DNA of 64,000 nucleotides from Candidatus Babeliales bacterium (GTDB lineage Bacteria > Babelota > Babeliae > Babelales > JANWKD01): NCBI GenBank assembly GCA_963722255.1, contig CAVRJO010000002.1, positions 608,001-672,000 of the forward strand, in the 5' to 3' direction. Below the pieces are notes generated by a model that saw nothing but the letters and a program-made list of their open reading frames with translations, had not been told where the DNA came from and did not search any database. Made by a program: the position numbers and the translations under genes. Shown one piece after another: positions 2,034 through 61,992 of the stretch; within the stretch, counting starts at the first letter, position 1, and each line of letters begins with the position of its first letter.

Positions 2034-3173
2034 ATGCAAAAAAGTTTTTCAATCACCATTTTTATGAGCATTACTTTCTTTACCATTCAATTTTTGCACG
2101 GTATGGAAGAGCGAGAGTTAAAAAGGCAATGTTTTGAACGTCCCACACTTTCGGATATGTGCAAAAAAGTAACTCCACAGAACTGTTATGGGGTTTATAA
2201 ACAAATGATTCAATTTGAACAATCCGTCACACCTGATCGAATATCAAAATTACTCCGCCACGGCAAAATAGCTTTTTTAAAACCTAACCAACACTATACC
2301 TATCAATTAACCAGATGTAAGCAAAAATTATTAGTGGCTCCTGCAACACAAGAATCAAAGCAGACTTTGAGCCCCTTTAGCTATCACCTGTCACCAGATA
2401 AAAGCATTGTTGTTCAAAGTCACGATAATGCTAATTCCATATTCGTTAAAAAATTTGACGCTCATGCCTTTAATGAATCTCTGGATTTAAACAGTGCAAC
2501 CTATGAAGATTTATTAGTTACTTGTCCAGGAAATTTTTGCTTTTTTTTAAATGATTCAACATTCATAACACAAGAATTTAATTGCTTACATCAGTTTTTT
2601 GTTAAAGAGAGCGAGGAAGGAATCAAGTGCTTTGAAATTGAGGAACCAATGGTTAACTTCCCCCACTTAATACCTTGCGGCAACAATCGGTTTTTTGCGT
2701 GCCACTACGACCTTTCTCAAGCAACTCCTCTTATGTATGCTGCTACTAAATATGTAACAGAAGATAACAGCTTTTCTAAGCGACCCGCAACCGATGAAGA
2801 ACTCAACTTTTTGCAAACTTTCCAAGGTTGCTCAGTTTGTTCTCTTGAAGGCACTCTCCTTACCGTCAGAAAGCATCAAAAGAACTCAAAAAATAAAATA
2901 GTTCACTATGATATGGCCACCTTAACAAAACTTGCAGCCTATAAGGAGAATGAACATACTCCTCATCATACTCTTGATACTTGCACACCTATATCCGCTT
3001 TACTTGTTTCAATTGCCTTTGCACAAGCACGGAAAAGTCCAAAGGGTTTATGGATATTAAAAGAGTCTCCCTTAATGTTAGAATTATCTGATACCCATAA
3101 AGATCAGAGTTTAAGAAAAATTGATCACACTATAAATCGTCTCTGCAAAGATATGCCGGAATTAGTTGACTAA
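2034..3173 (+). CDS. Hypothetical secreted protein
   Basis: 379-aa ORF; signal peptide ending ...QFLHG followed by MEERE; no family recognised. Confidence 0.7.
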   Translation: MQKSFSITIFMSITFFTIQFLHGMEERELKRQCFERPTLSDMCKKVTPQNCYGVYKQMIQFEQSVTPDRISKLLRHGKIAFLKPNQHYTYQLTRCKQKLLVAPATQESKQTLSPFSYHLSPDKSIVVQSHDNANSIFVKKFDAHAFNESLDLNSATYEDLLVTCPGNFCFFLNDSTFITQEFNCLHQFFVKESEEGIKCFEIEEPMVNFPHLIPCGNNRFFACHYDLSQATPLMYAATKYVTEDNSFSKRPATDEELNFLQTFQGCSVCSLEGTLLTVRKHQKNSKNKIVHYDMATLTKLAAYKENEHTPHHTLDTCTPISALLVSIAFAQARKSPKGLWILKESPLMLELSDTHKDQSLRKIDHTINRLCKDMPELVD

Positions 3174-3180
3174 CATTTTT

Positions 3181-59902: not shown

Positions 59903-61350
59903 ACTATGTTTATATTTGTATTATCAACTAATCTAAAAATTTTAAAATCAAAACAATGAAAAAAACAATAATAATTCTACTTGCAGTTTTGCTTAACATT
60001 TCAACATATGCAATGGAACAATCAGATCATCCCAAAAAAAGCAAGGTTGAGAAAGACCCTGCAATGCCAATACAAAATCCCAAAAGCCTTGTTGATATCT
60101 GCCTAAGAACCTATTCAGGAGCAATCAAGCAAAGCATTGATCCCAAAACACCATTCAAAAATGCAGATGCAATTAAACAAAAAATTATTGCTGTAAAAAA
60201 TCTTAACAACGATGCTCTCATGCAAAAACTTTCAACTTATCTTCACGAGAATACGCAACCAATCTGGCGAAGCATTATGCAATTAGGAACTGATGGTGAT
60301 GAAGATATGGGTTCCTTATCAGAACAAATGGTATTTAGCAATAATACTATTGCATGGGGCTATAATGGCTCTATTACCTATCTAAACATAAAAAATTCAA
60401 GATTAACACATTCTTATAAACTTCCTGATGAATTCGAAGCTTGCCAATGTATAGGCTTGACTCCTAATGAACGATATATTACTACAACAAATAAGTGTAA
60501 TCTTTTTTTATATGACACGCAAACCGGCTCTCATAGTGTCTATAGTGCCCCAAACTTCATAACTGCTTTCACATTTTCATCTGATGGGATCGCATTTCTT
60601 GGTCTTTATGATGGCTCATGCTGTTGTGTAAAAAAAGACAAAGCCAATAAACTTACGTTAGTAGATCAAATTTCCTATTTTTCTCAACCAATTCGCATTG
60701 TTAAATTTGGTCCAGACGGCTCAACATTATTTATATCCGATGGCAAAACTATAGCCTTAAGTCACAAAACTGACAATTATAAAATTATAACTCCTCTAAA
60801 AATACCAAAATTAAAAGGCCATATTGAGGGTAGTTCAATTAAAAATATTGTTATTGCCCCAGATTCATCATTTTTAGTTATTAATTTTTATAAATTCTCC
60901 TCATCACTTGTATATAATTTTACTCATAAGCGTTCTATGAAATTACCTGAGCGCATTATTACAATCGACCATATCAACAGATGCATTAGCGCGAATTTTA
61001 CTTACAAAGATGGCGATGAAAATGATGATGGTGGGCGAGCATGTCAATTAGATTATGATATGCCCACTAATTGGGTTAAAAGCGGAGACTATTCAAATTC
61101 AACGTATCTTTTACCAAAAGACTGTGTATGTTCAGTAGTATACCAAAATAATAGAACAGGAAGTCCAAAATCGGCAGTAATAAGACAAAAAGACGATGAA
61201 CCTGCCCATTTGCTGGTACAAAAAAATGTTAATCTTAAAGAACTTATATATCTTATTGCACTAGATGAAGCATCATATGAAGAGCTTCAAGCATTAAAAA
61301 AATTACAACAAACAAAAAAAGGCTCTCAAGAAAAACGACCTATTTTAAAG

Positions 61351-61992
61351 TTATAACGCCCCCGTAGACCGGGGGGCTTGACGGCTGTTAGCAGTCCCAA
61401 GGACTGCCAGATTTAACTTTGACTATATTTTAAAATTGACCTTCTTCATCAAAACCTTGGCTATCCAGCTGTTCTTGATTTTTCACGTAGGCTTTAACAT
61501 TCTCCAATTCATGACCTACTGTTGAAACCGCATATCCCCTTGCCCAAAACTTCTCGCCATTAAAATTTTTTTGCCGACCGCCAAATTGTCGCGCAACTGC
61601 AATCGCACTTTTACCTTTTATATATCCAACTATCTCTGCTATTGAATATTTCGGCGGAATACTTATCAGCATATGCACATGATCTTGTACCATGTGGCCT
61701 TCCAAAATCTTACTTTCCCTTTGTCCTGCCAATTCATGAAATACTGGTCCTAAGAATTTACGAATTTCTCCATAAAGTTTCTTTTTTCTATATTTTGGAA
61801 CAAATACAATATGGTATTTGCAGTTAAATTTAGAATGGCTTAAACTTTTAAATGATGTTTCCATATATATTTTTTTTCGAGCCGTCACGCCCTAAAAAAA
61901 TATATCATTGGAAACATTTTTTTTACACTTGAATCTAAAGGCCTAGCCTTGAAAGTCTCACTAGTCAAACTAGTGGTTTACCTATCTTTCAA
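61351..61992 (-). mobile_element. IS200-family element, 642-bp insertion
   Basis: Size defined by in-frame reconstruction of the host gene (TTAT ambiguity at both junctions); hairpins CCCCCG..CGGGGG and CACTAGT..ACTAGTG near the ends. Confidence 0.9.
61430..61864 (-). CDS. tnpA: IS200/IS605 transposase
   Basis: CKYHIVFVPKYR, DHVHML, KGKSA, FWARGY, YVKNQ. The start region lies in an inverted repeat (~61855-61917). Confidence 0.95.
   Translation of the reverse strand: METSFKSLSHSKFNCKYHIVFVPKYRKKKLYGEIRKFLGPVFHELAGQRESKILEGHMVQDHVHMLISIPPKYSIAEIVGYIKGKSAIAVARQFGGRQKNFNGEKFWARGYAVSTVGHELENVKAYVKNQEQLDSQGFDEEGQF

Follow-up and report, generated by a model that had tools for sequence, protein, structure and literature searches.

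The 64,000-nucleotide stretch of DNA analysed here (the window; positions 608,001 to 672,000 of contig CAVRJO010000002.1, assembly GCA_963722255.1) comes from a member of Candidatus Babeliales, an order in the phylum Dependentiae, and encodes a series of predicted secreted proteins in which Met stands directly after the putative cleavage site of the signal peptide (SP), i.e. at position +1 of the mature protein. A preliminary description of the window had quoted twelve such N-termini and proposed Met at +1 as a possible signature of an effector class. We have examined the proposal in the genome that holds the window (G000: 1.62 Mb, 34% GC, two contigs, 93% complete) and in relatives with genomes of 0.8-1.5 Mb from many families of one order, which make up the whole phylum sample and include a member of the same genus (G001) and one of the same family (G003).

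Crude longest-ORF calls on G000 gave 1725 open reading frames (ORFs) covering 88% of the genome; SPs and their cleavage sites were predicted with our own hydropathy/charge and -3/-1 (AXA-type) heuristic rather than SignalP, and 0.04-0.4 Mb of each relative were scored with the same script. We refer to an SP-like N-terminus as site-Met if it passes the combined score with Met directly after a -3/-1-compatible site, a set that includes some false positives (e.g. a MurC-like and a permease N-terminus). By this heuristic 751 of the 1725 ORFs (44%) have SP-like N-termini, which is in line with the available text of PMC6561590, where SPs are given for 44% of the coding sequences (CDS) of Chromulinavorax destructans.

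In the window, eleven of the twelve quoted N-termini hold up on translation: a K/R-rich start and a hydrophobic stretch are followed by a short polar c-region with a small last residue and then by Met at residue 19-24 (the positions by which the preliminary description names them being ORF start codons). On the forward strand these are a 379-aa protein with no Pfam match (SP 2034-2102, ...FLHG; Met codon 2103-2105, MEERE), an M48-peptidase-like protein (SP 7159-7227, ...STHP; Met codon 7228-7230, MFRQR), a 73-aa orphan (SP 15280-15336, ...MCKG; Met codon 15337-15339, MQIQT), a WD40-like beta-propeller protein with matches below the Pfam cut-offs (SP 58227-58283, ...STYA; Met codon 58284-58286, MERQS) and its paralogue (SP 59956-60012, ...STYA; Met codon 60013-60015, MEQSD). 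On the reverse strand we find a protein of 451 aa that weakly matches a zinc finger, zf-Di19 (SP 36403-36456, ...MMFC; Met codon 36400-36402, METSS), a 147-aa orphan (SP 38099-38155, ...NAMG; Met codon 38096-38098, MQEDQ), two paralogues that both continue with MSMKD, one from a GTG start (SP 43177-43236, ...YIHA; Met codon 43174-43176) and the other at 44122-44652 (SP 44593-44652, ...SIHA; Met codon 44590-44592), an ankyrin-repeat protein (SP 47184-47243, ...LCKG; Met codon 47181-47183, MTGSS) and a class I S-adenosylmethionine (SAM) methyltransferase (SP 49582-49650, ...LMNS; Met codon 49579-49581, MNDHP). Two of the eleven fail the strict context score: the M48-peptidase-like protein with its atypical Pro at -1 (THP/M, the slash marking the predicted site), whose homologue in G003 reads KAYG/MNTF at the junction, and the zf-Di19 protein with Met at -3 (MFC/M). 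Altogether, 10 of the 32 SP-like N-termini in the window pass as site-Met, and the scan adds a weak candidate that the preliminary description did not list (42212-42616, forward strand, ...LIAAIS/MTYNSCYP).

The twelfth N-terminus, quoted as ILT/MHHS for a paralogue of the 15280 gene (15535-15808, forward strand), does not exist in one reading frame: ATG 15535 opens MNSIQVFALFVSLFLYYNYSYYA, MHHS is read from ATG 15599 in the +1 frame, and that frame can be reached only from TTG 15554, without a charged n-region. Since the SP-like ORF and the MHHS ORF lie in different frames, this example is doubtful or frameshifted. The frame change comes directly after a run of seven T (15573-15579) in these tandem small paralogues (15280-15808, forward strand), and could reflect a frameshifted gene or an assembly slip. 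As for the other paralogues, genes for IS200-like Y1 transposases (IS, insertion sequence) adjoin both pairs: one (43306-43785, reverse strand) lies between the MSMKD genes (42904-43236 and 44122-44652), a second (61430-61888, reverse strand) is next to the WD40-like pair, and this placement suggests that the site-Met pairs in the window arose by IS-associated duplication.

Across the genome, 254 of the 751 SP-like N-termini are site-Met, with the Met about 19-26 residues into the preprotein. Counted from the end of the hydrophobic core, Met makes up 5.1, 2.7, 6.3, 8.0, 9.2, 5.9 and 3.7% of residues at offsets +3 to +9, respectively, i.e. there is a peak of 6-9% at 5-8 residues after the core, as compared to 1.2-2.4% beyond offset +9 and a mature-region background of 1.73%. 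Met residues in this c-region zone have a -3/-1-compatible context in 214 of 306 cases (70%) but all residues taken together in 1090 of 5257 (21%); the second-best residue reaches 23% at most and Gln, with 64 of 314 (20%), stays at baseline. So the genome-wide enrichment of Met at +1 that the preliminary description had set as a test is found with our heuristic, and the predicted sites do fall directly before Met. In the 254 proteins, position -1 is taken by Ala (33%), Ser (27%), Gly (22%), Cys (11%) and Thr (7%), position -3 by Leu, Ile, Ser, Val and Ala. Mean n-region charge (+1.9) and mean h-region length (10.9) of 191 strong cases equal those of other SP-like N-termini, a charged n-region and a hydrophobic h-region being built into the SP detector. 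Other leader types fit poorly: a lipobox-like pattern occurs in 7 of the 254 proteins (with Met rather than Cys at +1), an RR-x-hydrophobic (Tat-type) pattern in 5, and a type IV prepilin-like leader is not what we see, the hydrophobic segment preceding the Met. The 254 proteins are spread over both contigs and, by the BLAST clustering of their mature parts, fall into 207 clusters, 172 of them singletons; with so many clusters the enrichment is not a paralogue effect. No shared C-terminal sorting domain was found, as 191 C-termini fall into 171 clusters.

The residue behind the Met is just as biased. Position +2 of the 254 proteins is Glu in 48%, Asn in 13% and Gln in 10%, and if no filter is placed on +2, 160 of 213 Mets are followed by Asp, Glu, Asn or Gln (background 21%), whereas small residues account for 8% against a background of 35% and hydrophobic ones for 6% against 30%. 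At the level of sequence this bears out the remark in the preliminary description that such N-termini are of the type acetylated by the eukaryotic enzyme NatB. The preference is confined to one position, with Glu falling from 48% at +2 to 12% at +3 and being the second residue of only 8% of the non-SP proteins; the 25 residues after the Met are enriched in Glu, Gln, Ser, Pro and Lys and depleted of hydrophobics. As for the nucleotides, no information resides in the third codon positions around the ATG, Glu at +2 is encoded by GAA in 80% of cases, just as it is across the genome (79%), and no nucleotide motif or recombination site was found at the SP/Met junction. Silent third positions and an ordinary GAA share point to constraint on the protein rather than on the nucleotides.

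Among the relatives, the share of site-Met in SP-like N-termini divides the order. It is 21-34% in five of them, which represent four families (G001, 69 of 215; G003, 65 of 194; G014, 38 of 178; G020, 49 of 185; G024, 48 of 175), 16% in one (G018, 9 of 56) and 4-9% in two other families (G009, 7 of 82; G016, 7 of 158), with 0 of 14 in the 40 kb scored of G010; controls gave 3 of 70 (4%) in E. coli K-12, of which 250 kb were scored, and 2 of 36 (6%) in outgroup loci of WOR-3, Myxococcales and Saccharimonadia type. The association of Met with the site amounts to 60-78% in the seven trait-bearing genomes (G000, G001, G003, G014, G020, G024, G018); G009, G016 and E. coli stay at baseline. Asp, Glu, Asn or Gln follow the Met in 54-80% of cases in five relatives; in G020 and G024 the residue is mostly Asp, i.e. 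Glu has been switched for Asp. An artefact of AT-richness is excluded, because G016 (31% GC) and G009 (33% GC), whose AT content equals or exceeds that of G000, have few site-Met proteins. Judged from TyrS identities to G000 rather than from a tree, the trait-bearing genomes are mostly the nearest (74-80%, 70%, 67%) and G016, G009 and G010 stand at 60-62%, which is compatible with one origin of the trait in a Babeliales subclade; G018 (TyrS 59%, yet 16% site-Met) fits poorly.

What the proteins are was surveyed in 264 kb around the window (37 site-Met and 69 other SP-like proteins). The site-Met group comprises four WD40/beta-propeller, two F-box-like and two C2H2 proteins, one leucine-rich repeat (LRR) and one ankyrin protein, several of these matches lying below the Pfam cut-offs, next to an AAA ATPase, a methyltransferase, one probable false positive and about 23 proteins with no match; the others include BamA, PBP1a, GH3, PAP2, PASTA, EamA, LysE, VKOR and a pilin. 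The claim that the signature sets zinc-finger, ankyrin and WD40-like proteins apart from housekeeping envelope proteins is supported: eukaryote-like domains are found in 10 of the 37 against 5 of the 69 (Fisher p=0.008) and the envelope proteins lack the Met, but the split is leaky. Site-Met proteins also have few recognisable orthologues: a reciprocal-best match in G000 exists for 9 of 69 from G001, whereas it is 67 of 146 for SP-like proteins without the Met and 117 of 191 for ORFs without an SP (Fisher p=1.5e-6). Three proteins with Met-Glu or Met-Gln behind the SP (G000_749, G001_18 and G003_2) have as best cross-genome match a leaderless G016 ORF with, by eye, a DnaJ-like N-terminus, which suggests exported J-domain proteins among them.

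As secretion machinery besides Sec, G000 has two tandem secretins and two ATPases of the type II secretion system (T2SS) type. The secretin genes are large (C1:854358-859728, reverse strand), lie about 4-5 kb apart and form a pair that all 20 relatives share across the order, in agreement with the two gspD copies described in the available part of PMC4776705; T2SS is, in the available parts of that paper and PMC4378268, the sole secretion system reported for cultivated or binned TM6. VirB4 (type IV) and FHIPEP (type III) were not found in G000 at its 93% completeness, types I and VI not having been searched. As a discriminator of the trait, secretins had to be dropped: all 21 genomes have two or three, G016 and G009 included. 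The same applies to a GNAT acetyltransferase with an SP-like N-terminus (P0035; L179:2225-2851, reverse strand, which is G000:C2:570225-570851), considered as an N-terminal modifier. With the same query a 54%-identical copy was found in G020, a weak one in G014 and none in G024, G016 or G009, so its presence does not correlate with the trait.

To our minds, these findings are best explained by a +1 Met rule, specific to the lineage, that holds for a class of substrates of Sec and signal peptidase I (SPase I) in a subclade of Babeliales, a reading to which we assign a probability of roughly 0.55. As the sequences show, the preproteins are made from an upstream start codon preceded by a Shine-Dalgarno (SD) motif and carry an ordinary n-h-c SP with the -3/-1 site directly before Met; at these heuristically predicted sites SPase I would cleave to release mature proteins beginning with Met-Glu (Met-Asp in some families) or Met-Asn/Gln. 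Such Met-acidic/amide N-termini appear to be selected at the protein level in a fast-evolving, presumably host-directed secretome of F-box, C2H2, WD40, ankyrin, LRR and orphan proteins, which would leave the cell by Sec and then, presumably, through a secretin/T2SS-like system, the only further system found among those searched for. Three observations together point to selection on the mature N-terminus itself, namely the exact abutment of site and Met, the acidic/amide +2 residue that shifts with lineage, and a signal that resides in the protein.

What the Met-acidic end might be for is more speculative. Met-aminopeptidase does not trim an N-terminus of Met followed by Glu, Asp, Asn or Gln; such an end falls among the NatB substrates and does not act as an Arg/N-degron, properties which fit the idea of the preliminary description that the mature proteins mimic host N-termini. 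The end may accordingly resemble that of a host cytosolic protein, or it may be a tag read after SPase cleavage; a post-Sec sorting role fits equally as well as host mimicry. Going further, the Met-acidic end might be a signal for delivery to the host or persistence in it, by which the effector repertoire is set in a large Dependentiae subclade. It would be a bacterial counterpart of PEXEL-type host targeting, where cleavage exposes the signal, and would be read either after Sec (by the secretin/T2SS-like system, in vesicles or at vacuole crossing) or as a NatB-class look-alike of host proteins. This we regard as a tentative extension, possible but by no means the expected outcome.

Several observations weigh against a +1 Met rule with such a function. 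Four WD40 paralogues and a zf-MYND protein are among the SP-like proteins that have no Met, and G016 and G009, members of the same order, have SP-bearing ankyrin and C2H2 proteins without it, so that export as such does not depend on the Met. Nor did any gene turn up that co-occurs with the trait. With the strict pattern, the SP/Met junction is kept in only 24 of 51 cross-genome best-match pairs (baseline 28.7%, p=0.005; a looser count by eye gives about 34 of 54) and in 0 of 7 pairs whose subject comes from G014 or G020. In global alignments the Met is conserved no better than its neighbours, a comparison that is uninformative site by site since the sequences are often misaligned by a few positions. 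The junction is kept in some pairs of low identity (e.g. ...LFS/MEEDV and ...SHA/MEAPQ at 30% overall identity). As judged from these pairs, the SP/Met junction is inherited between close relatives and subject to turnover at greater depth. Finally, cleavage sites are heuristic predictions, and acetylation and stability on the host side are pure inference.

Turnover of this kind is also what one would expect of the chief rival, according to which the Met is the scar of an old start codon: SPs would have been added, by 5' extension or leader capture, before the original Met of young genes, formerly cytoplasmic or acquired, and the relic would then decay under weak selection. Consistent with this, the Met is found mostly in genes that are young or evolve fast and is missing from the old, conserved proteins of the envelope, individual Mets come and go (none survives in the seven deep pairs), and public gene callers sometimes begin near the internal Met (P0001, P0004-P0006). 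In the same vein, the G003 orthologue (60% identity) of a G000 protein with an SP/MEED junction (L038:10954-12159, reverse strand) has an in-frame SP-like stretch, NKKTIVLIIFSSISFLAA/MEEN, with no ATG, GTG or TTG upstream, so that the ORF begins at the Met; its start codon may be non-canonical or lost. The scar leaves unexplained, however, why Glu, Asp, Asn or Gln occupy 75% of +2 positions if Glu comes second in so few native non-SP proteins, why the Met abuts the -3/-1 site exactly in 70% of cases and why Glu gives way to Asp between lineages. Moreover, homologues without an SP that begin at the aligned Met are rare, with 2 clear and 21 doubtful cases in 300 pairs, the clear ones being a J-domain-level match and a pair of 24% identity and the doubtful ones mostly membrane or misaligned proteins. 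In the methyltransferase at 49650, whose distant homologues have a cytoplasmic-type helical N-terminus in place of the SP, the SP has taken the place of about 25 helical residues and was not put in front of an old start, and G016 and G009 have equally many SP-like proteins and no Met. On balance we judge the scar unlikely, although it is the competitor we take most seriously.

Another way to account for a fixed +1 residue without any later function is the peptidase itself. A lineage-specific SPase I, or a dedicated paralogue, might prefer Met at P1' and an acidic P2' for the sake of processing efficiency, and the Q-rule of Bacteroidetes (PMC5837995, as far as available) is a precedent for a phylum-specific preference at +1. 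S26 peptidase genes seem at first sight to follow the trait, with two each in six trait-bearing genomes (G000, G001, G003, G020, G024, G018) and one in the trait-poor G016 and G009. But G014 has a single LepB and still 38 of 178 site-Met, so that the number of LepB copies and the trait do not go together, and the two G000 paralogues are closer to each other (65% identity) than to the G016 or G024 enzymes (48-55%), as expected of a recent LepB duplication rather than of an old dedicated enzyme. In addition, these cells make conserved envelope proteins that do not have the Met. A dedicated peptidase is therefore rejected as a candidate, and we regard peptidase preference in general as improbable.

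Still less credit can be given to dual initiation, the option raised in the preliminary description that the internal AUG is an alternative start yielding cytoplasmic isoforms. With Met exactly at +1 such an isoform would be identical to the processed exported protein, and since SD-like motifs precede fewer than half of all genes (45% of first starts among the site-Met genes, 33% of non-SP genes), starts without SD are possible in principle. Yet SD-like motifs before the internal ATGs amount to 1.6%, below random internal Met codons (5.4%) and the corresponding position in SP-like genes that lack Met (5.4%), and the upstream purine fraction, at 0.40, is the lowest of all classes tested (0.61-0.62 at first starts). 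Neither of the cytoplasm-fed systems searched for (VirB4, FHIPEP; types I and VI were not searched) was found, and leaders frameshifted so as to force an internal start, or to allow phase variation, are rare and unconvincing (5 of 294). In terms of sequence, then, the data show that the upstream, SD-preceded codon is the real start of the preproteins, and the alternative start is not supported. We also find it very improbable that the leaders are an artefact of an ORF caller that extends upstream into AT-rich DNA and that the Met is the only true start: AT-rich sequence does translate into Lys, Asn, Ile, Phe and Leu, and the public call of the methyltransferase (P0001) begins 3 residues before the Met, but the equally or more AT-rich G016 and G009 show no Met peak with the same pipeline, SD-like motifs precede the upstream starts, 8 of 10 full-length, leader-bearing window proteins are exact public entries, and SPs were assigned by Phobius/SignalP to 44% of CDS and to 79 of 126 ankyrin proteins in cultivated Dependentiae (available portions of PMC6561590 and PMC4378268).

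A +1 Met rule would share features with several known systems and match none of them. Canonical Sec/SPase I SPs likewise combine an n-h-c layout with small residues at -3 and -1 and a c-region about 5-7 residues long, but their usual +1 residue is Ala, and Met after the site remains at noise level in our controls (E. coli and the outgroup loci). In the lipoprotein +2 sorting rule and the lipoprotein export signal of Bacteroidota, residues after the SP site, often acidic ones, decide on later sorting; these signals require a lipobox and Cys at +1, whereas the proteins described here have Met and next to no lipobox. A further parallel is offered by PEXEL in Plasmodium and RxLR in oomycetes, where cleavage exposes an acetylated N-terminus with adjacent Glu, Gln or Asp that marks proteins sent to the host, although these belong to eukaryotic parasites with another protease and motif, and in our proteins acetylation and a translocon would both be conjectural. 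We know of no modifying enzyme for a +1 Met rule.

The nearest bacterial parallel is the Q-rule, under which SPase I substrates of Bacteroidetes carry Gln at +1 that is cyclised to pyroglutamate (PMC5837995, in its available part). Like the Met described here, it is a lineage-restricted residue right behind the SPase I site that was found by genome statistics, and it is held to bear on what becomes of the new N-terminus rather than on sorting or Sec export itself. The differences are that G000 has Met with an acidic/amide +2 and Gln without association to the site, that site-Met covers about one third of SPs and one class rather than most SPase I substrates, and that it is patchy within its phylum. 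Babela massiliensis and Chromulinavorax destructans are the same kind of organism, with eukaryote-like Sec-dependent proteins and no secretion system reported other than T2SS, and most of their ankyrin proteins carry SPs, as counted above; the available parts of PMC4378268 and PMC6561590 do not mention the residue after the cleavage site. We found no description of a +1 Met in the literature searched, including the Dependentiae genome papers PMC6561590, PMC4776705 and PMC4378268 exclusive of their supplements, and none, among titles and abstract openings, of effectors that are NatB-acetylated by the host after delivery.

The window holds further features that we note in passing. A full-length bacterial class A RNase P RNA (5980-6335, forward strand; 232.8 bits) overlaps ORFs 5418-6005 and 6010-6267, which are merely mechanical. 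AAA_14 and DUF4143 fall on adjacent ORFs (23430-24077 and 24083-24577, forward strand), and what lies at 23430-24577 looks like one ATPase gene split in two; another DUF4143 ORF is found at 62546-63550. An 82-aa SP-bearing protein (28783-29031, reverse strand) has a mature part of nearly all Gly with Arg, Phe and His (GGGHGGGGGFGGGRGGG), and a predicted AAA-ATPase_like plus PD-(D/E)XK (PDDEXK_9) protein (8383-10059, reverse strand) is unrelated to the Met signature.

If the +1 Met rule holds, the Q-rule of Bacteroidetes would no longer stand alone as a lineage-specific preference at +1. The protist parasites of the phylum Dependentiae are widespread and hardly represented in culture; nearly half of their genes carry export signals, and a known injection system is absent from the genomes examined (G000 here; Babela and TM6 bins in the available parts of PMC4378268 and PMC4776705). 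Effectors could be predicted in practice by a sequence rule that sets some 190-250 candidate host-directed proteins in each genome apart from the housekeeping proteins of the envelope. Such a rule makes testable how Sec-exported F-box and zinc-finger proteins reach the host cytosol and survive there, and whether it is the new N-terminus, rather than the SP, that carries the information for delivery to the host.

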